DNA from: a phage
DNA: 64,000 bases
Direction: 5' to 3' (one strand)
Sequence record: PZ452595.1
This document shows positions 1-12,717 of the stretch, piece by piece (the first letter of the stretch is position 1; every line of letters begins with the position of its first letter). The notes under the pieces are model-generated. The model ran no database searches and was not told the origin of the DNA. It worked only from the letters and a program-made list of their open reading frames with translations. The position numbers and the translations under genes were made by a program.

Positions 1-93
1 ACCGTAAGAAGCTAATTTAGCAGCCAGACTTTCCGGAGTCTCACGCGACAAAGCTTTATCTAACAGAGCTAAACGTTCTTTAAAAGTTTTCAT
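1..93 (-). CDS. hypothetical protein, N-terminal part only (gene runs off window start)
   Basis: ATG at 91-93 (minus) overlaps stop of 90..419 ORF (ATGA); open to window edge; begins MKTFKERLALLDKALS. Confidence 0.4.
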   Translation of the reverse strand, partial: MKTFKERLALLDKALSRETPESLAAKLASYG

Positions 94-419
94 TTAAACC
101 ATCCTTTAATACGTTGCCACAAAGTTTTCTGCTGAGCTTTGTTAACACCAATTGAGCGAATAACTGGTTGAGATTCCTGGAATTCTTTATAATCAGCAAG
201 ATAAATTTCGTAAGCTGCATCCGTAAATGAACTTATCGCTGCCATAAAATTATTGCGAATACCTACTGGAGCATCTTTACTTTCACGAATAATCATGTAT
301 TTACCAGTCTTAATCTTTACGATAGTTCCAAGATAAGCTCCATGATACCAGATGTCCCACCCCTCTTGAGTGGGTTCTGCGCAACGACGAAGTTCATTAA
401 CAATTTCTAACTTGTTCAT
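90..419 (-). CDS. hypothetical protein (109 aa) downstream of motA
   Basis: ORF track; tightly packed after motA on same strand. Confidence 0.55.
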   Translation of the reverse strand: MNKLEIVNELRRCAEPTQEGWDIWYHGAYLGTIVKIKTGKYMIIRESKDAPVGIRNNFMAAISSFTDAAYEIYLADYKEFQESQPVIRSIGVNKAQQKTLWQRIKGWFK

Positions 420-429
420 TATTTATTCC

Positions 430-1065
430 TCACAGTTCAGATGCTACAGTGATTACTGCTTCAATGTTTTCTGCCGAGCGTTTAATGTCAAGATACACAT
501 TACCGTTTTTAGCGATTTTACATGACATTCCAATATCAGTAAATTTCTGAATATGATGTTCCATCATTTTGTATCCAAAAATTCGCATATTTCCATTGTT
601 GTTAATTTCAAAATTACGAATTCCGTGAGTACGTTTTTCTAAAATAGCGAGATAGTTACTACGATAAGTTTCAACCTTTTTAAGAACAAATCCATTTTCA
701 TCTAAAAGTTTTAACATGAAGTCTTTATCTTCTTCCATATCGGAAGTAATTTCGCGAGCTTTACGAGTTGCTCGTTTTTTCAGCAGTTCCGGAGCATTTT
801 CTTGTGCGTATAAAGTTGCTGCATTTGAAATAATATCCTGAGCTTCGCCTGTAATGATTAATCCATCACCAGATTTCTCTACCAGGCCTTTTTTAATCAA
901 TACCCCAATATTACTATTAACTACTGCGTTACCTAAATCTGGATGCACTTCACGAACTTCTGCAGCTGTAATGAAATCTTTCTTAGCAATAGTAATTAAA
1001 ATCGCAGCAGTTTTTTCATTCAGAACATCGTTAGAAGCTTTGATGATGTAAGTTACTTTAGACAT
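430..1065 (-). CDS. motA: MotA, activator of middle transcription
   Basis: 211 aa; N-terminus MSKVTYIIKASNDVLNEK matches T4 MotA by recall; SD GGAG upstream. Confidence 0.9.
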   Translation of the reverse strand: MSKVTYIIKASNDVLNEKTAAILITIAKKDFITAAEVREVHPDLGNAVVNSNIGVLIKKGLVEKSGDGLIITGEAQDIISNAATLYAQENAPELLKKRATRKAREITSDMEEDKDFMLKLLDENGFVLKKVETYRSNYLAILEKRTHGIRNFEINNNGNMRIFGYKMMEHHIQKFTDIGMSCKIAKNGNVYLDIKRSAENIEAVITVASEL

Positions 1066-1106
1066 TTTCTAATCTCCGTAATTCTGTATCAGTAGTTGAT
1101 AGTTGT

Positions 1107-1136
1107 ATAGTACCACAGTATGCTTTGGTTGTAAAC
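1107..1136 (-). promoter_or_regulatory. T4-type early promoter upstream of motA
   Basis: Minus strand GTTTACA - 17 nt - TACTAT; conserved cassette. Confidence 0.6.
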
Positions 1137-1166
1137 CGTTTTGTGAAAAATTTTTGAAATAAAAAA

Positions 1167-1186
1167 GGGAGAGCCGAGGCTCTCCC
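1167..1186 (-). terminator. GC-rich hairpin after small gene downstream of 52 (terminator/RNA-stabilising)
   Basis: gggagagccgaggctctccc inverted repeat. Confidence 0.5.
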
Positions 1187-1191
1187 TAAAA

Positions 1192-1341
1192 TTACTGCTC
1201 GAACGCGATAACTATCGTGATAACACGTTGAATTCCGAACGCAAGAAGACCTCCTGCTACGGCTGGAACAACGCCTAAACCCGCCAGTAAAATGCTACCG
1301 GATACTAATGCAGCGCTTGTAATACCAATGAATGGACTCAT
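1192..1341 (-). CDS. small hydrophobic protein (~49 aa)
   Basis: Hand-translated; ATG overlaps gene 52 stop (ATGA); not in ORF track (<60 aa). Confidence 0.4.
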   Translation of the reverse strand: MSPFIGITSAALVSGSILLAGLGVVPAVAGGLLAFGIQRVITIVIAFEQ

Positions 1342-2666
1342 TTGATTTCCTCTAAATCTTTAGTGTATTCAGTAACTACATCAGTAGTTTTCCAATATTC
1401 ATTTTCTTCTTTTTTAGCTTTAGCTTCTTCAGCAAGTTTCTTTGCTTCATCGGAAGTCATATGAAAAATATTCATTCCAACTAGTTTATCAACATAAGAA
1501 GAATACATATCGATTTTCGAAAGTTCTTCGGTCAGTTCTTTACGAGTTTTACCCTGCACAACAATTTCACCTGAAATTACTTTCTTAATGAAATGTGCCT
1601 TGGCAAAGGCTAAACGAAAAGCTGACTCAGTTTCTTTAATTTTGTTATCAATTCGTTTTTGGACATAAGTTTTACGAACTTCAACGAAGTCTTTAATTAA
1701 ATCAACCACGTTATCGTAAACTTGTAGTTTTCCTTTCTCATTAATAACCGTAATATTCTGAGAACGACGCTCAATCAACCCGAAGTCTTTCATAATTTTT
1801 GCATGGCGTTCTTCTTCGTTATCGCTCAAAGAGTATTCTTTGCGGAATTTAACTTTGAAGCCAAAACCATGCTCACCACAAGCATCATCCCATGTAATGA
1901 AGCCTTTATCTTCAAGTGGGTCTAAGATTTTACTCACGTAAGTTTCACGATCATACTTATACGGAATCTCAGTGATATGCATTTGAGTTCGTGAAGTAAA
2001 CTTATATGTTCCACGAATTTCATATTGCCCATCAATTTCAACGACTTCACCACGAAATTCTGGGAATTCTACCTTCGGTTTAGTTACTTTCTTTCCTTGA
2101 AGAGCTTGTAGTACAGCTTTCTTGACAGAAGAAACACTATGAGGAAGAATGTAAGTTGCATAACCAGTTGCAATACCGGAAACGCCATTAAGAAGAACAG
2201 TAGGAATAATAGGCAAATAGAAAGCAGGCGGAATGTGTTCTTTATCTTGATGTACTGGAGCATATTCAGTATCTTTATATACGTTATAGAAATTTTTACT
2301 TACACGAGCAAAAATATAACGACTTGCCGCTGCCTTTTGGACAGTACGAGAACCGAAGTTTCCTTGACCATCTAACAGAGGAAAGTTATTATTCCAAGTG
2401 TTAGCCATCAAAGCTCCCGCATCTTGCGCAGAGTTTTCGCCATGGTGATATCCAAGGTCCGCTACACCACCTGCAATAGAAGCGAGTTTGTGAAACTTAT
2501 CTTTATTTCCTCGTGCCAAATCAAGAGCTCGAGCAATAACAAATCGTTGAACTGGCTTAAATCCATCAATCATATTTGGAATGGCACGATTTTCAACCGT
2601 GTACATAGCATAAGCCAATGCTTCATTATCAATGATACTTTTTAAATCGCGATTATTCAGTTGCAT
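1338..2666 (-). CDS. 52: DNA topoisomerase II medium subunit gp52 (GyrA-like)
   Basis: 442 aa as in T4 gp52; position between motA and ndd. Confidence 0.9.
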   Translation of the reverse strand: MQLNNRDLKSIIDNEALAYAMYTVENRAIPNMIDGFKPVQRFVIARALDLARGNKDKFHKLASIAGGVADLGYHHGENSAQDAGALMANTWNNNFPLLDGQGNFGSRTVQKAAASRYIFARVSKNFYNVYKDTEYAPVHQDKEHIPPAFYLPIIPTVLLNGVSGIATGYATYILPHSVSSVKKAVLQALQGKKVTKPKVEFPEFRGEVVEIDGQYEIRGTYKFTSRTQMHITEIPYKYDRETYVSKILDPLEDKGFITWDDACGEHGFGFKVKFRKEYSLSDNEEERHAKIMKDFGLIERRSQNITVINEKGKLQVYDNVVDLIKDFVEVRKTYVQKRIDNKIKETESAFRLAFAKAHFIKKVISGEIVVQGKTRKELTEELSKIDMYSSYVDKLVGMNIFHMTSDEAKKLAEEAKAKKEENEYWKTTDVVTEYTKDLEEIK

Positions 2667-2670
2667 AAAT

Positions 2671-2811
2671 TTACCATACTAGTGAATGTAGTGCCATAAT
2701 AACATCAGAAATGAAAAGCACGACTTGAATTAATCCGAACATTACTCCATAATATAGTGCTACCAATAAAGTAGCAAGGGCTAATGAATAGCCCAAGATT
2801 TTCTTAATCAT
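2671..2811 (-). CDS. small membrane peptide (~46 aa)
   Basis: Hand-translated MIKKILGYSLALATLLVALYYG...; ends 4 nt before gene 52 start. Confidence 0.4.
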   Translation of the reverse strand: MIKKILGYSLALATLLVALYYGVMFGLIQVVLFISDVIMALHSLVW

Positions 2812-2971
2812 TAGTAGATAACAACACAAATGTTAAATATGCACACATACCCTGGGCTAAAGCTTGTGAAAACACACTGCTAGCATCGATCAGATAGTTA
2901 AAACACATGCTACTATCCAACAAATAAATGAAATAACTCCTAATAATTTTGCGATATTCATAATATTCTCC

Positions 2972-3127
2972 TCAACTATTTTTAGAACCAATGTACGCGA
3001 ATAATGATAAAATCGCTAATACGCCCTGAGCTGATGCTTGTAAAAATACTGAAGTTTCTCCAGTTATTACTGTTCCGATGCATAAAAAGAACCAACAGAA
3101 AAAGGCTATACCGTGAACAAATTTCAT
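2972..3127 (-). CDS. small membrane protein (~51 aa), possibly ac (acridine sensitivity)
   Basis: Hand-translated MKFVHGIAFFCWFFLCIGTV...; size and position fit T4 ac by recall. Confidence 0.4.
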   Translation of the reverse strand: MKFVHGIAFFCWFFLCIGTVITGETSVFLQASAQGVLAILSLFAYIGSKNS

Positions 3128-3139
3128 ATTTTCCTCACT

Positions 3140-3155
3140 GGCGTCCGAAGACGCC
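3140..3155 (-). terminator. UUCG-tetraloop hairpin
   Basis: ggcgtccgaagacgcc; minus-strand loop UUCG. Confidence 0.5.
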
Positions 3156-3214
3156 TTTGGTTTTAAGATTGTTACGATAGAACTGCATCACATGTTCGTT
3201 ATGGAAATTACTCA

Positions 3215-3658
3215 TTAATATGCCTGCAAAACAAATTTAAAGTTATCAGCCAACATACGGTTCATTTCTTCAAGTGTTTGATACTCAGAATGATGATTAC
3301 GAGTAAACGCCAAAGCTAACTGACCTTTTCCAAATCCCGTCGTCAGAGGTTTCATCTTAGAAGCAGGCAGATAAAACACTGCGTATACCATATTGTTATT
3401 TGCAATAGTACGCGCAAGTTGAGACCGGCGTTGACGAATATGACTTAGAACTGCACTGAATCCTTGCTTAGAACGCTGATTACCTACATAAAATCGTGCA
3501 GATACGCATGAACCATCGAATTCACTTACTAAAAAGTAAAATCCAGGTTTAGACAAAATGTCTTTATGCGGAGTTCCCAAAAACCATTCACCACCCTTGA
3601 TTGTACCAATAACAGTAGCGCCTGCATCATTCAGATCAGTAACAGTCATATATTTCAT
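3215..3658 (-). CDS. ndd: Ndd, host nucleoid disruption protein
   Basis: C-terminal 147 aa (from [10 protein letters not shown]) match T4 Ndd by recall; SD GAGGAAA before ATG at 3658; track ORF extends to 3706. Confidence 0.8.
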
Positions 3659-3718
3659 ATTAATTTCCTCTAAATTATTTTCTACTCCAAGGCCGCATGA
3701 ATACACACGGCCATTAAA

Positions 3719-3934
3719 TTAATCGTCGCAGTCGACGCTCAATTCCCAAAACTCTTCTACAGTATAAGTTTCAGTATCATTTTCAATACAGAAACGTTCA
3801 TTACTATTATTTTCTAAAGTAGCGTTAACTGTCATTTTCTCGCTAGTGCTCTTAAGAGGTGAAATACGAATTAACTGATCACCGTTATCTAAACAAAAAA
3901 TTTCACCAACTTTTACATCTTTAAAGATTTTCAT
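3719..3934 (-). CDS. hypothetical protein (71 aa)
   Basis: ORF track; SD-like GAGG upstream. Confidence 0.55.
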   Translation of the reverse strand: MKIFKDVKVGEIFCLDNGDQLIRISPLKSTSEKMTVNATLENNSNERFCIENDTETYTVEEFWELSVDCDD

Positions 3935-4049
3935 AATTCACCTCAGGGAGTATAAAATCCAAACGCAGTTGTTGACCATCCCATCCAATACGGAAAATTT
4001 GCACCAATGTAAAACATAAGAATATAAAACCAACCGCTCAGCAAATTCA

Positions 4050-4268
4050 TCATTTTACACCGTTCCAAATTGTTTCAACCACAGATTTTAAACCATTTTG
4101 ATGAATATCAATTCCGACTACTGTCATCAAATAGATTCCAACTACAACTGAACCTAAGGCAAAAATCAGCATGAAAATGAATAAAGCCGGAAAAATATTA
4201 TCGAAAAACCATTCAATAAATGTAAAAGCACTGCGTTTACGCTTCATATTTTCCTCACATAAATCCAA
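4050..4268 (-). CDS. small membrane protein (72 aa)
   Basis: ORF track; long hydrophobic segment FPALFIFMLIFALGSVVVGIYLMTVVGI. Confidence 0.55.
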   Translation of the reverse strand: MDLCEENMKRKRSAFTFIEWFFDNIFPALFIFMLIFALGSVVVGIYLMTVVGIDIHQNGLKSVVETIWNGVK

Positions 4269-4368
4269 AGTAAACGTTTAATACATCAATCATTAAAACG
4301 ATTGGGAATATACTCAAAACTATTAGTATTATAACTACATTCCATATAGCTTTAACAATCTTTTTCAT
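4255..4368 (-). CDS. small membrane peptide (~37 aa)
   Basis: Internal ATG after conserved GGAGGAAC SD; track ORF (to 4464) is a read-through of the promoter cassette. Confidence 0.4.
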   Translation of the reverse strand: MKKIVKAIWNVVIILIVLSIFPIVLMIDVLNVYFGFM

Positions 4369-4396
4369 TTTCTGTTCCTCCGTAGTTGATAGGGTA

Positions 4397-4426
4397 ATAG
4401 TACCACGGAAGAACAGTCTTGTAAAC
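4397..4426 (-). promoter_or_regulatory. T4-type early promoter
   Basis: GTTTACA - 17 nt - TACTAT followed by conserved 5' UTR and GGAGGAAC SD. Confidence 0.55.
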
Positions 4427-4432
4427 AACTTT

Positions 4433-4531
4433 TTAAAAATATTCGTAATAAATGTGAATACCAACTACTACCGCTGAAACTTGCACAACCCACCACGCAC
4501 AAGCAATAAGTACAGAATTCAAAATTTTCAT
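4433..4531 (-). CDS. small hydrophobic peptide (~32 aa)
   Basis: Hand-translated MKILNSVLIACAWWVVQVSAVVVG...; ATGA coupling to upstream peptide ORF. Confidence 0.35.
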   Translation of the reverse strand: MKILNSVLIACAWWVVQVSAVVVGIHIYYEYF

Positions 4532-4614
4532 AATAACCTCATTACAAAAGTAAATGTTAAACAAATTACTGGAATACTAATTAACCAAACAAAACACCAC
4601 CACAGTGAACTCAT
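4528..4614 (-). CDS. small hydrophobic peptide (~28 aa)
   Basis: Hand-translated MSSLWWCFVWLISIPVICLTFTFVMRLL; coupled to 8-codon leader ORF starting ~4637. Confidence 0.3.
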   Translation of the reverse strand: MSSLWWCFVWLISIPVICLTFTFVMRLL

Positions 4615-4684
4615 AGTTCAATCTCAGCGATTTTCATTTTATTCTCCAAATCCGTATCAGTAGTTGTCAGTAGTTGATAGTTGT

Positions 4685-4714
4685 ATAGTACCACGGTCCT
4701 TGTGGTATGTAAAC
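4685..4714 (-). promoter_or_regulatory. T4-type early promoter
   Basis: GTTTACA - 17 nt - TACTAT just downstream of denB. Confidence 0.55.
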
Positions 4715-4729
4715 CATTTTGTGAAATTT

Positions 4730-5287
4730 TTAAATGGAAAGATACCATCCGTTGTAGTTGCTTTTTCTTACAACCTTACGAAGGTCTTCTCTATCACCGA
4801 TGAACTTCGGAGTGTACTGGATGACACCTGGATGAATTTCTTTAGTGTTGAATATAATTATACAGTCAGCGACTTGATGATTTAGAATGGGCCCTAGATT
4901 TATTCCAGAACCGTATGGATACTCTCCGCTGCATCCTGTTGTTACAGAAATCCAACGTGAGTCAGTTTGATGTGTCTTAACTTCTACACGAAGCCCGCAG
5001 TATTTTGGATGCGCCAATACATCCCATGCATATGTGTACGGATCATCGACATCTTCTTGGCCTTTATTGACATATCCGCTTAGCCAATCTGCCACAAAAA
5101 ACTCTGCGTACACAGCGATACGGCATCTTTCGATAACTTCTGCCTTATCCTGATTTGGGTTCTGTTTTAAAGAGTATCTTGCAGTATCAGCAATTTTGAC
5201 CTTCATTTCACTAGTCAAGTCACTGTTCGATAGGGTAAATGTCGGAATCTGAAACAGTCTCTGTAAACCCGGATTCGTTTTCTGCAT
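4730..5287 (-). CDS. denB: DenB, endonuclease IV
   Basis: 185 aa as T4 DenB; position next to rIIB. Confidence 0.8.
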   Translation of the reverse strand: MQKTNPGLQRLFQIPTFTLSNSDLTSEMKVKIADTARYSLKQNPNQDKAEVIERCRIAVYAEFFVADWLSGYVNKGQEDVDDPYTYAWDVLAHPKYCGLRVEVKTHQTDSRWISVTTGCSGEYPYGSGINLGPILNHQVADCIIIFNTKEIHPGVIQYTPKFIGDREDLRKVVRKSNYNGWYLSI

Positions 5288-5352
5288 TTAAACTTTCCTT
5301 TTATGTCGGAATCACCGATATTCATATAAATCATAATTTCTCTTAAAACAAA

Positions 5353-5367
5353 AGGGCCGAAGCCCCT
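5353..5367 (-). terminator. UUCG-tetraloop hairpin
   Basis: gggccgaagcccc after 5372..5566 ORF. Confidence 0.5.
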
Positions 5368-5371
5368 TATT

Positions 5372-5566
5372 TTACTTGAATTGTGCAATTCTTTTCTCTA
5401 GACATTCAGCATAAGATTTCATTGAGATAAACTGCGAAAGTAACAGTTCTTGCTCAACTGCATTAACTGTTAGAAACTTTGCGCTTTCTAAAAATTTGCT
5501 CAGTGCATTAATTTTGAGCATTAATTGATCGTATTCTTCTTTTACTCGTGCTTGATAACCTAACAT
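5372..5566 (-). CDS. hypothetical protein (64 aa)
   Basis: ORF track; followed by UUCG hairpin. Confidence 0.55.
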   Translation of the reverse strand: MLGYQARVKEEYDQLMLKINALSKFLESAKFLTVNAVEQELLLSQFISMKSYAECLEKRIAQFK

Positions 5567-5580
5567 AATTTTCCTTAGTT

Positions 5581-5596
5581 AAGGGCCGAAGCCCTT
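5581..5596 (-). terminator. UUCG-tetraloop hairpin after rIIB
   Basis: aagggccgaagccctt overlapping rIIB stop. Confidence 0.55.
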
Positions 5597-6533
5597 ATTT
5601 AAATTGTTCAGTAACGTCTTCAACTACTTCGTATTGGCAGGTACGCATTTTAGCATCGTTGTAATCAATCGGAATTGATACTACATCGCGAGGATGAACT
5701 TTAACTTTTACAACTCGGCTGGTTGAACTGCCAAAGTGACGAATATAAGATTTAGAACACACATGCAGACCACGAGAACAAGTTTGTGTATCATCGTCAT
5801 TCACACGAGTACGTGGCATTTTAACTACTTTACCCGGACTGTTATCAAAGGTATTTGAGTGACAGTCAAAGTAATTGCTACGAACTACTTTCCAAGCATA
5901 GAAGTAACCATCTTCTGTAATTTCAATATCGTTTGCTACCAAGAAATCAAAGAGTCGAGATACCGCTTTTTGGCTTGGGTTTTCCAGCAGATTTTCCAAG
6001 AACGGAAAATAAAATTCAAAGTTTTCGCCTTTTTCCATCGAGTCAAGAATACGATCAACCAAACCAGACCGCAATTCAATATTTTGATAGAACAAGCTTC
6101 CACCTTCAATTCGAACATCGCCGGAAATATATTTTTCAACAGCGCGACGAACATTAATTTTTTGTGCCGCTTCTTCCAACTTATCCGCTACAAGCAGATT
6201 AAGAATTTCCTGGAAGTTTGAATGAGTATTAGGAGTTGCATTATAAGTTACACCGTCAACAGTAATTGAAATGAATTTTTTAGATGCATTCCAAATAATG
6301 TCAGATTTAGCAACTGGAGCAATAACTGCATCGCTATTAACTTTAACTGTAATATCACCGCTAATAGTAACTTTAGGGCGTTTAGCTTCTTCAGCATTTT
6401 TCAAAACACGACGGATTGTGTCAACCGATACACCTTGCCAATCAGCCAATTCCTGTTGGGTGTAATTACCACTTGAATACAGTTTAACAATTTCAGCTTG
6501 TTCGTTTTTGGTCAGGCATTTAATATTGTACAT
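5595..6533 (-). CDS. rIIB: RIIB, rapid-lysis/membrane integrity protein
   Basis: 312 aa as T4 rIIB; adjacent to rIIA. Confidence 0.9.
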   Translation of the reverse strand: MYNIKCLTKNEQAEIVKLYSSGNYTQQELADWQGVSVDTIRRVLKNAEEAKRPKVTISGDITVKVNSDAVIAPVAKSDIIWNASKKFISITVDGVTYNATPNTHSNFQEILNLLVADKLEEAAQKINVRRAVEKYISGDVRIEGGSLFYQNIELRSGLVDRILDSMEKGENFEFYFPFLENLLENPSQKAVSRLFDFLVANDIEITEDGYFYAWKVVRSNYFDCHSNTFDNSPGKVVKMPRTRVNDDDTQTCSRGLHVCSKSYIRHFGSSTSRVVKVKVHPRDVVSIPIDYNDAKMRTCQYEVVEDVTEQFK

Positions 6534-6544
6534 AATTTTCCTTA

Positions 6545-8722
6545 TTAGGCCGCAAGGGCCTTCATAGTTTTAGCGATTTGGGAAACTTCATCATCACTTA
6601 AAGAGTTGCGATAACTGATGAAGTCGGAAACAATACGGAATTTCTTGGTAAACTCAGCAACCATTTTATCACTGTTTTTTGAAGCATTATTTGATAATAC
6701 ATCAAAAAGATTAGTTACTGTCCAGATGTCATGACCGATGGTATCTTTTCCACCATTAAAATATACACCCTGTAATGAACTAACCATATTAGCGAGTCGT
6801 GTATATTCTTCAGAAACTTCATCTACACTGAAGTACTTCATCATAAAATCTAACTCAGGATACTTGATAATTTTATCAATATATCGTTTAGCTGAACTTG
6901 AATAACCTACATACTTATCATAATCTACATCATCAAAAGCATCTACATATAAATCACGCAAAGCTTCAAAAATACATTGGCACTGACCGAGTTCTTTTAC
7001 CTTTTTCTGTAAAAGCGGACGAATAACATAAAATTCATTAATGCCAATAAGATTAGCCATACGAATCAAAATATTCATAGATGGATGACAAAGAGATGTA
7101 GTACCATCCATAGAGAAAATATCAGAACGATGCATATACGCTACATAACCAGTAATTTCATCTGCTTCTGACGTAAGTGTAAATAGTTCCTCTTTTTCCC
7201 AGCGCCCGTCTTTAATTTCAAACTTAAATGCTGTAGCAGCTTTAGGACGAGGAGCTTTACTTTTAACTACCTTTGGAATATAGCTTTTAACTAAAGCTTC
7301 AATTTCTGACAAATAATGAATGTTAACTTCATCACTTTCAAACATCGCCATAATATCAGGAAGTAAATCAATCTGCGATTCTACTTCTGGGTTAATAAAC
7401 AGAAGGCGTTCGTTATGATGAATATTTAAAGTGTTATTAAATTCACTATCATCTAACGCATGTGCTAATCCACGGACAATATTAACACGATTTTTAATAT
7501 CATCAATAACGATATTAATTTTTGTTGTATTAATACCAAACAGACGATAGCTTGATGCAACGGCTGAAGTTTCATGGCTTTGCTTAATACGTTTCAGCCG
7601 AGGGTCAAGATTTACTTCATACACAACTCCTGCATTGCATAACTTACTATCAGGTTCAAACATGCTCTGCATCTTTTTATATGACAGATTTTTAGTCGTG
7701 AATTTGACTGAATTACTAATCATATAATCTCGAGCAGAATACCCCATCTTCATCAATTCACGATATGTATGACGAGGAGATGTAGATTCTTTAAATCGTT
7801 TTACATCTTCATTAAATGCTTTCTCACTGAGTTCTTTAACTCGTTCAATAATATTTTTACGAGTACGATCATCCAGTGAAAGAGCCTCGCGAGATGGAGC
7901 AATATCAAGTGAACCCATTGGAAACTTAATGTAATTCACTTCATTGCGAATGCTTAGCCAGTTACGGTCTCTAATAACACCATCGATAGGATAAACAATA
8001 CCGCCGTAGATAGCATACAATCCACCACGATCAGGCCAGTATCTTTCTGGATTTACGCCGTAATAATCATCGAAATCCGGAAAATAATCAATTTCGCGGT
8101 CAAGACCATTAATGATAGCCAAATCTTTGAACGGTCGCATGATATAAGAAACTTCATAAGCAAAGTTTCTAAAGTCTTTTTCTTCAACTGGAACTACGAT
8201 TTCAATACCAGTTTTATCATCTGGACCCATTTCTTTTACGAATGTAGGTTTAATCTGTGGACCATCACCATCCATGTAAGCTACATAACCACGAATTTCA
8301 CCTTTATGATAAGAAGTAATACTAAACGTATCAGTATAACTAAACGGAGATTTAGAACCTAAACCAAATCCGCCAATAAAGTCATTAGATTCAGCTTTAG
8401 ATGAACTGAAGTATGAATTATACAACCCAGGAGAATTATCATCACCTTGAATATCAAAATCACTCATACCCGGACCAAAATCTCGACAAACAAATCGTGG
8501 GTCTAAACGTCCAGGAACTTGTATGATAAATTTCTCTGGATTTCCATTAAGTGCATGAGCATCAATCATGTTAGTAATCAATTCACGGACTACTGCGCGA
8601 ATCTTGTTTGTATATAAATCAGATGACAGAATTTTAAATACTTTAGGAGATGCTGTGATGCTAAATGCTTTTGATTTAGAACCATTGCCAAGAATTGTTT
8701 CTTTTTCAGTGGTGATAATCAT
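6545..8722 (-). CDS. rIIA: RIIA, rapid-lysis protein
   Basis: 725 aa as T4 rIIA; position. Confidence 0.9.
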
Positions 8723-8732
8723 AATTTCCTCA

Positions 8733-8936
8733 TTAATTCATATTACGCTTAATAACTTCAGCAACTTCTAGTAGTTCATCTTTAGTTGCGGTGTCGGATT
8801 GAATTTTATCTCTAATATCTTTAAAGCGGTTTTTAAATTCTTCGGCTTCTCCCATATCGAAAAAGCGTTGAATGATTCTATATTCTCGATGAACTGCTTT
8901 ATCAAAAAGTTCTAAATTTACTTTATATGATTTCAT
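8733..8936 (-). CDS. hypothetical protein (67 aa), rIIA.1-like position
   Basis: ORF track; SD GAGGA; early promoter just upstream. Confidence 0.6.
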
Positions 8937-8961
8937 TTCAATATCCTCATTTGCCCAATTA

Positions 8962-8991
8962 ATTATACCACATCCTTGTGGTAAAGTAAAC
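8962..8991 (-). promoter_or_regulatory. T4-type early promoter upstream of rIIA.1/rIIA
   Basis: GTTTACT - 17 nt - TATAAT; 32-nt identity with promoter at 53189. Confidence 0.65.
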
Positions 8992-10808
8992 TATTGGCTC
9001 ATCCATTCTTTACGAAGGTCAGCATTATCTCCCATGAGCATTTCAAAAAGCTCTTTCCAGTTCTCAGGAAGTTTAACAACATCATATACTGGGTTTTGAA
9101 TCATCTCACGATATTCAGATTTTTCCAAAGAGCCAAGTCCTTTAATATAACGGATGCTATGTTTAGGTAAAGCATCTTTAGCACTCTCATATTCAGCGAC
9201 TGTATAAAACCATTCTTGTTTTTTACCGACCTGAGCGATGATTACAGGAGTTTTGACGAAGCGAATTCGTCCTTGCTCAAACAATTCTGGCCAATTACTA
9301 AAAAATCCAAGCAGAGAAGGATAAATGCTTCCTAGACCATCATGGTCAGCATCAGTCATAATAGCAATATTATGATAATTCAAGTTTTCAGCTTTTTCAC
9401 CGAGAACTAATCCAGTGATTGCGCAAATATCAAATAGTTCTTTGTTTTTAAGCATATCTGCATAAGACATACCCCAGCTATTAAGAACTTTACCACGCAA
9501 TGGATAACCACCGTGAAGTTCTTTATCACGAACATCAATAAGATATCCGATAGCAGAATCACCCTCAGTCAAGAAAAGAGTAGTGTCAGCATCTTTACCA
9601 CAAAGATTCGCTTTGATATGTTTATGAACCTTAGCTTTAGAAGCCTTTTTAGCTGCTTTAGTTTCTGCTGCTTTTTCTGCCGCCAATTTACGAGCCAAAG
9701 CAGCTTCAATAATCGGCATTAGAATTGCTTCATTATTTAGAATAGCACGTGAAATCTTTTTAGCATCAAGCTGAATATGACTACGGATTTCACCAAATGG
9801 AGAAGTCAAACGCTCTTTAGTTTGAGAATCAAATCGCATGTTTTTCATATCACGAACAAACATAACGATTGTCAAACATTCTTTTACACGCGCTTTAGTT
9901 ACATCAATTTTGAACTTACGTTTGATTTGTGGAATAAGGTCTTCACAAATATCATCCATAACACAGTCAATGTGATGGCCACCATTCTTAGTGTGAATGT
10001 TATTGACGTATGTTAATTGACGAAAACCATCCGGTGAACGACCAACCGCAATAGAACAATTTTCTTGTTCTTGAACGATAGCATGCTCATCATATTGGCG
10101 TGCATATTTCTTAAAATTGCCCTGAACCTTTTTACCATTAAAGGTAAATTGAATATCAGGATAAACTACTGCAAGTGTCTGGAGACGATCTAGTGTAATG
10201 TCAAGATAAACTTGGGACAGCTCATTAGTTTCAAATGACATAAAATCAGGAATGAAAGTAACACGAGTTCCTTTCCATTTTCCAGGAATATCTTCCCATG
10301 ATTTATTTTCCATGCCATTTGAACAACGAACTACAATATTATTTTGACCATCACCAGTTTCACCGACAAACATCACAGAAAAAATGTTTGTCAAACTAGA
10401 ACCAACACCATTCATACCACCGGTGACGCGTTCTTTATCATCACCGAAGTTACCACCTGCTTTTGGAATAGTCCATGCAGCAACAGGACCAGGAATTTCT
10501 TCACCGGTAGGTGTTTTAACCATCGCTTGTGGAATACCACGACCGTTATCTTCAACTGTTACTTGATTGTTTTTAATAGTAACATTAATTTTATTTGCGA
10601 ATTTAAACTTAGTACGAATACCTTCATCTACTGAGTTATCGATAATTTCATCAATAAGCTTAACAAGACCAGGTACATACTGAACACTTTCCCATTTACC
10701 AAACAGAAAGCGCTCATGCATTTCATTAGCAGAAGAGCCGATGTACATGCCACTGCGCTTTTTGATATGTTCAATATCGCTCAGAATTTTAATTTCATTC
10801 TTAATCAT
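8991..10808 (-). CDS. 39: DNA topoisomerase II large subunit gp39 (GyrB-like ATPase), uninterrupted form
   Basis: 605 aa from ATG (track ORF begins one codon earlier at GTG); MIKNEIKILSDIEHIKKRSGMYIGS GHKL N-terminus; single ORF, no gene 60 split. Confidence 0.9.
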   Translation of the reverse strand: MIKNEIKILSDIEHIKKRSGMYIGSSANEMHERFLFGKWESVQYVPGLVKLIDEIIDNSVDEGIRTKFKFANKINVTIKNNQVTVEDNGRGIPQAMVKTPTGEEIPGPVAAWTIPKAGGNFGDDKERVTGGMNGVGSSLTNIFSVMFVGETGDGQNNIVVRCSNGMENKSWEDIPGKWKGTRVTFIPDFMSFETNELSQVYLDITLDRLQTLAVVYPDIQFTFNGKKVQGNFKKYARQYDEHAIVQEQENCSIAVGRSPDGFRQLTYVNNIHTKNGGHHIDCVMDDICEDLIPQIKRKFKIDVTKARVKECLTIVMFVRDMKNMRFDSQTKERLTSPFGEIRSHIQLDAKKISRAILNNEAILMPIIEAALARKLAAEKAAETKAAKKASKAKVHKHIKANLCGKDADTTLFLTEGDSAIGYLIDVRDKELHGGYPLRGKVLNSWGMSYADMLKNKELFDICAITGLVLGEKAENLNYHNIAIMTDADHDGLGSIYPSLLGFFSNWPELFEQGRIRFVKTPVIIAQVGKKQEWFYTVAEYESAKDALPKHSIRYIKGLGSLEKSEYREMIQNPVYDVVKLPENWKELFEMLMGDNADLRKEWMSQ

Positions 10809-10860
10809 CACTTATCCTCGTTTGGTTTCGGGAATATTATACTCCAATAATCATAAAGCT

Positions 10861-10878
10861 AAAGGCCCGAAGGCCTTT
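10861..10878 (-). terminator. UUCG-tetraloop hairpin
   Basis: aaaggcccgaaggccttt. Confidence 0.55.
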
Positions 10879-11147
10879 TATTTAAAACGGATAGTCGAAT
10901 CCTTAAAGAACAGCCCAGAACATACTGTTCCTTCTACTTTCTGCCCAGTAGGTCCAATAGCACGAAATCCAGTATGCTGGAAATCATTTTCAGAGCAACC
11001 GAACCAATTATATCCAGTGATTTCAATATTAGTAAAACCACTTGAAGATAAAACTTTGGTTGCATTATCAGCATCAGTACATCCTGCTAACGACACTGCT
11101 AATACTAATGCTGCGATAGAACGATTAATATATTTCATAATTTTCAC
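10878..11147 (-). CDS. putative lipoprotein (89 aa)
   Basis: ORF track; signal peptide with lipobox LAGC. Confidence 0.6.
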   Translation of the reverse strand: MKIMKYINRSIAALVLAVSLAGCTDADNATKVLSSSGFTNIEITGYNWFGCSENDFQHTGFRAIGPTGQKVEGTVCSGLFFKDSTIRFK

Positions 11148-11515
11148 TTAAATTTAATGGCTTGAAGAAGACTAATAACTCTCAAGCGACTTCTTTCATC
11201 TTTAACTGTAAAAGAAAGAGGGTCACCAGATTTCATAGTAATAGTACATTCAAAATCAAAATCTTCGGAAACTTCTTTGAAGAAGTCAAATTCTTCATCA
11301 TAAATTAGAACATTACTCTGACAACTATGAAGAATTTTTCCATCATTTCCAGATGCTGTACTAATCATTGTAACATTATGACCTTTCATATCTTCAACGA
11401 TAAATTCACTAGTCAATATTACAGCATTAATAGAACTATTCCTATTACTAGCAGAAAGTAGATATTTCTGTTCTTCACCTTCACGAATGCGATATTTCTT
11501 ACCGATTTTAAACAT
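11144..11515 (-). CDS. hypothetical protein (123 aa)
   Basis: ORF track; 4-nt overlap with downstream gene. Confidence 0.6.
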   Translation of the reverse strand: MFKIGKKYRIREGEEQKYLLSASNRNSSINAVILTSEFIVEDMKGHNVTMISTASGNDGKILHSCQSNVLIYDEEFDFFKEVSEDFDFECTITMKSGDPLSFTVKDERSRLRVISLLQAIKFK

Positions 11516-11517
11516 AA

Positions 11518-11694
11518 TTACCCTTTAAGTAAGTCGTAAAAACCACCATTCACATGCTTAGGAGCAGAAGGCCGACGAGTAGACAAACGATGACATTTAG
11601 GGCAAACATCATTTTCTCGTTCAGAAATCTTTTTAATTTTTTCATATTCATGCCCACAATCTTCGGATTGGCATTTATAATCATACATTGGCAT
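11518..11694 (-). CDS. FmdB-like zinc-ribbon protein (~58 aa)
   Basis: Hand-translated MPMYDYKCQSEDCGHEYEKI...CPKCH; two CxxC pairs; not in ORF track. Confidence 0.5.
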   Translation of the reverse strand: MPMYDYKCQSEDCGHEYEKIKKISERENDVCPKCHRLSTRRPSAPKHVNGGFYDLLKG

Positions 11695-12350: not shown

Positions 12351-12620
12351 TTAATTGAACATTGGAGCGATGCGTTTCAGAAGAGTAGCAGCACCTTTGG
12401 CGAATTTTACATCATGAAAAACAGTTTCTTCTTCCGTTACAACACGAGCTTTAATGTTTTCGCAATCCCAATTTTTGCGAACAATCTTCAAAAGCTGCAA
12501 TAAATCTTTACATTCAGCAATATCGATAACATATCCACGAGAATCTTCCATTATCGCACGATAACCATAAGCCATACCATAATCATTGAAAGATTGCTCG
12601 ATGATAATTAAGTTTTCCAT
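12351..12620 (-). CDS. hypothetical protein (~89 aa)
   Basis: ATG preceded by GGAG + AATAAA spacer; track ORF starts at TTG 12632. Confidence 0.55.
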   Translation of the reverse strand: MENLIIIEQSFNDYGMAYGYRAIMEDSRGYVIDIAECKDLLQLLKIVRKNWDCENIKARVVTEEETVFHDVKFAKGAATLLKRIAPMFN

Positions 12621-12717
12621 TTTATTCTCCAAGTTATTTTCTGTATCAGTAGTTGATATTGATATAGTACCATAATCAACTACTGATGTATATAGTTTTA
12701 TGAAAAAATTTTAAACT

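Follow-up and report, generated by a model that had tools for sequence, protein, structure and literature searches.

Introduction

In phage T4 the large subunit of DNA topoisomerase II is specified by a split gene. Manning and Atkins (bioRxiv 10.1101/2022.08.31.505936) describe this arrangement as a ~1.1-kb MobA mobile element, which removes 64 nt of the parental gene when it inserts. The 5′ limit of the element lies at nt 1399-1419 (RB14 numbering) and its 3′ limit in clade 1 lies 9 nt past G491; as a homing element, the cassette spreads horizontally, with many independent insertions (bioRxiv 10.1101/2022.08.31.505936). In the account of Bonocora et al. (2011) given in that preprint, the MobA nick in T2 gene 39 falls within the 64-nt segment, at a distance of ~20 nt on the upstream side of the bypass position. 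Phages that carry the bypass insert are shielded by it from being cleaved again by MobA. The corresponding 1117-nt stretch of T4 carries a 43-aa gp39 tail, the mobA pseudogene, 60.1, and the start of gp60 with ~30 novel amino acids; it also holds a recoded copy of the NY-N-AIMTDADHDG segment (the DxDxD of the Toprim domain) and the 50-nt gap.

Phages T2 and T6 have a two-subunit topoisomerase II, and for the T6 enzyme both structures and a measured relaxation activity exist (PMC11461880). Their gp39, like the '60plus39' protein of RB14 and RB32, has the same 605 aa as the protein described here, in the same locus order (rIIA - rIIA.1 - 39 - 39.1). Cellular ParE, GyrB, and the N-terminal half of eukaryotic Topo II share with this protein the domain order GHKL ATPase, transducer, Toprim. 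By the T4/T6 literature the T-even enzyme relaxes DNA without supercoiling it.

We analysed gene 39 in a 64-kb stretch of phage DNA (64,000 nt, record PZ452595.1; the window, throughout). With a probability of about 97%, we read the locus as the standard never-split T-even large-subunit allele ('60plus39'), which with gp52 would form a two-subunit enzyme and which contains an uninserted MobA target. What we observe directly is the ORF, its colinearity with known genes, its sequence identities, the lack of any cassette feature, and the gene for the partner subunit. The unsplit gene 39 is not new: It has been annotated before, and the structure of the T6 protein has been solved.

The gene 39 reading frame and its product

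8991..10808, minus strand: gene 39, uninterrupted, topoisomerase II large (GyrB/ParE-like) subunit, 605 aa (ORF list, Pfam, blastp, PDB 8ylu_C, PHROG)
10816..10819, minus strand: Shine-Dalgarno GAGG, 7 nt 5′ of ATG 10808 (read off the sequence)

The minus-strand ORF as listed runs from a GTG at 10811 to a stop at 8991, a total of 606 codons with no internal stop. One codon inside the GTG lies an ATG (10808), which is the start used by T4 gp39, T6 gp39, and RB14 '60plus39'. Because of this homology and the spacing of the Shine-Dalgarno sequence, we take ATG 10808 rather than GTG 10811 as the likely start. The gene then has the same length (1818 nt) as gene 39 of RB14, T2, and T6. The preliminary description had placed it at 8991-10811 with ~605 aa: The length holds, and the 5′ coordinate is one codon too long.

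All three expected domains are found in the protein. The Pfam HATPase_c model matches aa 48-150 (E = 2e-9), and the GHKL ATPase motifs comprise EIIDNSVDE at 54 (N-box), DNGRGIP at 87 (G1), and GGMNGVGSS at 130 (G2). DNA_gyraseB (Pfam) matches aa 251-385 (E = 1.5e-13), where QTKERL at 329 is the QTK loop of the transducer. The Toprim motifs EGDSA (415) and DADHDG (486) both lie on the single ORF, making up a complete Toprim domain with the catalytic Glu and the DxD. The Pfam model for Toprim itself stays below threshold in gp39, and TOPRIM_C alone passes (E = 4.2e-7); we nevertheless accept the domain because EGDSA and DxDxD are present and because it is resolved in the structure of the 99.7% identical T6 protein. 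That structure (PDB 8ylu chain C, T6 gp39, cryo-EM) aligns without gaps over residues 1-605, with 603 of 605 identical and two substitutions. A PHROG search assigns the protein to phrog_543, "DNA topoisomerase II large subunit" (E = 2.4e-295). Among cellular proteins, full-length matches include yeast Topo II and both human forms, alpha and beta (E = 1e-56 to 1e-59), and ParE (1e-47). Compared with cellular B subunits, gp39 is compact, without the GyrB-type insertion, and GyrB is more distant from it than ParE and eukaryotic Topo II are.

1338..2666, minus strand: gene 52, topoisomerase II medium (GyrA-like, DNA breakage-reunion) subunit, partner of gp39 (PDB match, phrog_551)

The gene for the cognate GyrA-like subunit lies in the same genome, 6 kb from gene 39, and its product is nearly identical to gp52 as seen in the solved T4/T6 complexes (PDB 8yo3_A/8ylu_A; E = 1e-297). 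Conventional translation of the unsplit gene would yield one 605-aa chain with GHKL ATPase, transducer, and complete Toprim. Together with gp52 this chain is predicted to form a (gp39)2(gp52)2 ATP-dependent type IIA topoisomerase, a two-subunit enzyme as in T2/T6, which would relax supercoils and support phage DNA replication. For the ATP-dependent relaxation activity and the quaternary structure we infer as much from the 99.7% identity to T6 gp39.

Colinearity with T4 gp39 and gp60

8733..8936, minus strand: rIIA.1, 67 aa, the sole gene between rIIA and 39 (PF24210, T4_RIIA1, E = 1.4e-33)
6545..8722, minus strand: rIIA, 725 aa, downstream neighbour (nucleotide alignment)

For comparison with T4 we used positions 1-7500 of its genome (NC_000866), with gp60 assembled from its two annotated exons. 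In blastp, with the ORF numbered from the GTG, residues 2-474 match T4 gp39 1-473 (466/473 identical, 99%) and residues 473-606 match T4 gp60 27-160 (128/134, 96%). In the 605-aa numbering these are residues 1-473 and 472-605, and the two matches abut at aa 473/474. A single ORF of 605 codons, gapless against T6, thus spans gp39 and the gp60-equivalent C terminus, as had been proposed. The C terminus is indeed gp60-like, and T2 gp39 differs from the whole protein by one amino acid; the ~160 aa first assigned to this region were too many, with a counterpart for only 134 of the 160 gp60 residues. Neither T4 gp39 aa 474-516 nor gp60 aa 1-26 has a counterpart in the window protein by blastp: The last 43 aa of gp39 and the first ~26-30 aa of gp60, both cassette-encoded in T4, are missing here.

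The nucleotide alignment agrees. Two blastn blocks pair window 11140-9391 with T4 5661-3911 and window 9326-8600 with T4 2793-2067; between them lie 64 nt in the window (9327-9390; gene nt 1419-1482) versus 1117 nt in T4 (2794-3910). Within the comparison of window 8600-11200 with T4 2000-5800, the whole span is aligned except for these 64 nt opposite the 1117-nt stretch, and T4 2794-3910 has no homologue at the locus, so that mobA is absent both as an intact gene and as a pseudogene. The recoded Toprim copy and the 50-nt gap that T4 holds there are likewise absent. On the downstream side the rIIA region is 98.4% identical to T4 1-2793, and rIIA.1 lies 54 nt away from the stop of gene 39; the statement that only a 67-aa ORF lies between rIIA and 39 is borne out by rIIA.1 and this spacer. 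The T4 enzyme is otherwise the same enzyme, 99% and 96% identical in the shared protein parts and 97.2% in their DNA, with the same neighbours.

Two peculiarities concern the T4 reference itself. At gene 39 codons ~326-328, NC_000866 reads MRLIRQTK, whereas the window (~9825-9839), T2, and T6 read MRFDSQTK. In the DNA this is a -1/+1 compensating frameshift beside the QTK loop (CGATTGATTCGTCAA in T4, CGATTTGATTCTCAA in the window), and MRLIRQTK in the old reference is probably a sequence error. In addition, the NC_000866 cassette exceeds that of other T4 records by 11 nt.

Absence of the bypass element

9333..9338, minus strand: codons Gly491-Leu492 (GGT CTA), the equivalent of the T4 take-off GGA / 50-nt gap / resume UUA (sequence reading, hairpin search, folding)

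The T4 bypass site reads GAT GGA / UAG CCUUCGGGCUAUC ... UUGGA / UUA GGU UCU. The window reads GAC CAT GAT GGT CTA GGA AGC at this place, without a stop and without an insertion: Gly491 is GGT (9338-9336) and is contiguous with Leu492. On direct reading the site has no GGA-UAG take-off, no adjacent stop, and no matched GGA landing codon. The T4 take-off hairpin (GGATAGCCTTCGGGCTATC), searched with up to three mismatches, has zero matches across the whole 64-kb window, and we therefore reject a displaced bypass element elsewhere in it. Folding gives the T4 take-off stem-loop -14.7 kcal/mol and z = -3.66, compared with z = -0.8 for the corresponding 41 nt in the window. Around the site, RNA folding finds only a weak 5-bp hairpin (z = -0.8 to -1.4) and no other cryptic structure.

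The earlier claim that gene 60, mobA, and the bypass gap are all lacking is thus confirmed by the 64 nt that stand opposite 1117 nt in T4 and by the absence of both take-off context and hairpin, and the gene can be read through without any frameshift or bypass. For annotation, the name should be DNA topoisomerase II large subunit (gp39, unsplit '60plus39' form), with no recoding event.

The MobA target segment and the origin of the empty site

9327..9390, minus strand: 64-nt segment (gene nt 1419-1482, aa ~473-494, ...ENLNYHNIAIMTDADHDGLGS), unoccupied homing site (blastn vs T4; identity to T2)

The breakpoints in the window (nt 1419 and 1482, with G491 = GGT) match the published limits of the MobA element exactly, and the 64-nt segment equals the T2 sequence at every position. 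Insertion of the MobA homing-endonuclease cassette into the Toprim-coding region accounts for the three-subunit enzyme of T4 and its 50-nt bypass, and the window holds the uninserted target. We take the empty site as the ancestral state. The locus adds one more case to the view that the split gene and ribosomal bypass of T4 are the exception, derived from a mobile homing cassette, and that most T4-like phages keep the gene intact.

Other histories could also leave an unsplit gene. If an unsplit allele had replaced the cassette completely by gene conversion, the result would look the same as a site that was never inserted. Secondary loss, in which a cassette once present went by "hit and run" or by precise excision so that the fused state is not ancestral, has precedents: Clades that lost endonuclease and bypass after insertion have been described (Manning and Atkins, bioRxiv 10.1101/2022.08.31.505936), and mixed infection and recombination with an uninserted phage could restore the site. 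The documented losses, however, keep the cassette-encoded C- and N-terminal extensions, and none is left in the window, where the protein is gapless against T6 gp39. Moreover, the 64 nt have the parental sequence, equal to T2, with many synonymous differences from the homologous region borne by the T4 cassette. With no remnants of extensions and a segment of parental type, we reject secondary loss as unlikely, with only a slight chance of being correct. A split gene masked by an error in sequencing or assembly, or by cryptic recoding (frameshift or bypass), is excluded for practical purposes because the alignment is colinear and 450 records share at least 99% protein identity. Nothing was found in favour of this reading: 605 sense codons stand in one frame, the proteins of hundreds of independent genomes are at least 99% identical, and the site has no stop codon, GGA-UAG, or hairpin.

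On the never-split reading, the 64-nt site is probably sensitive to MobA, with the MobA nick site inside it, because the 64 nt are identical to the T2 target. By the same reasoning the target is naive. There is a very small chance that it makes the phage a natural recipient for the bypass cassette, or alternatively that small synonymous differences just outside the segment alter its sensitivity; either way, knowledge of the system would be unchanged.

Relatives and the lineage-marker question

The protein is 100% identical to '60plus39' of RB14 and RB32, to that of HP3, and to others, and lies one amino acid from T2 and two from T6; 450 records encode a protein at least 99% identical to it. 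At the nucleotide level the gene is 96.8%-98.1% identical to that of RB14, RB32, T2, and T6, and the differences are only synonymous or near-synonymous. Over the 1754 nt common to five phages, identity to the window is 98.2% for RB14, 97.6% for T6, 97.2% for T4, and 96.6% for T2. T4 is no outlier in the pairwise identities of these shared gene parts (window, RB14, T6, T2, and T4).

The locus query returned 565 phage records, of which ~501 reach at least 90% identity (the Tequatrovirus level). The T4 cassette occurs in 43 phage records, ~9% of the Tequatrovirus records, leaving about nine in 10 unsplit, and the unsplit gene is the rule among ~2000 phage records that cover at least 80% of the protein in one piece. 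In the preliminary description the phage was called T2/T6-like at this locus and the uninterrupted gene a useful lineage marker. The first statement is right for the arrangement (one and two amino acid differences) and not for kinship, the likeness being a shared ancestral state of low discrimination. The second is overstated: About nine in 10 records are unsplit, the cassette is mobile, and the T4 flanks (97.2%) are as close as T6/T2. For these same reasons the absence of the cassette indicates the ancestral state, "not T4-type at this site", and not T2/T6 kinship; we reject it as a lineage marker, T4 not being set apart by the identities of the shared parts. As a typing character it splits the cassette carriers from the rest, and nothing more. 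The first 25 kb of the window are ~96% identical to the nearest records, AV122 and MLF4, and the source phage is a typical mosaic Tequatrovirus.

Upstream signals and neighbouring genes

10836..10877, minus strand: upstream signals of gene 39, comprising a hairpin, TTTAGCTTTA, and TATAAT (sequence and consensus)

Directly after the 39.1 stop lies a GGCC-UUCG-GGCC tetraloop hairpin (10877-10862, minus strand). On its 3′ side stands TTTAGCTTTA, then a 12-nt spacer, and then TATAAT (10841-10836, minus strand). The geometry of TTTAGCTTTA, 12 nt, and TATAAT resembles the consensus of a MotA-box middle promoter, and it is a candidate for a MotA-dependent one that would serve gene 39. A sigma-70 scan found no -35/-10 pair at this candidate, and sigma-70 and terminator scans of 8500-11600 performed no better than shuffles. 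The motA gene is present in the window at 430-1065.

Gene 39.1 (10878-11147, minus strand) has 89 aa in the ORF list and 86 aa in the RB14 annotation, and its N terminus is lipoprotein-like (…LAVSLAGC). In T4 it is annotated as only 65 aa, although DNA homology extends upstream to T4 5661. Between 39.1 and 39.2 lies a 123-aa ORF (11144-11515, minus strand; phrog_622), annotated RB32ORF005c in RB14 and T6. This ORF (window 11141-11512) is without a T4 counterpart: The alignment with T4 stops at window 11140 and resumes at 11513, with T4 5657-5661 at the junction. Another small-ORF indel relative to T4 occurs between cef and motB, where ~200 nt (window ~12413-12612) within a 93-aa ORF (12351-12632, minus strand; phrog_3720) are unaligned to T4 1-7500.

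Across the 64-kb window ARAGORN found no tRNA genes, and no Rfam family reached its gathering threshold. GC skew is negative throughout the window, consistent with nearly all genes being on the minus strand.
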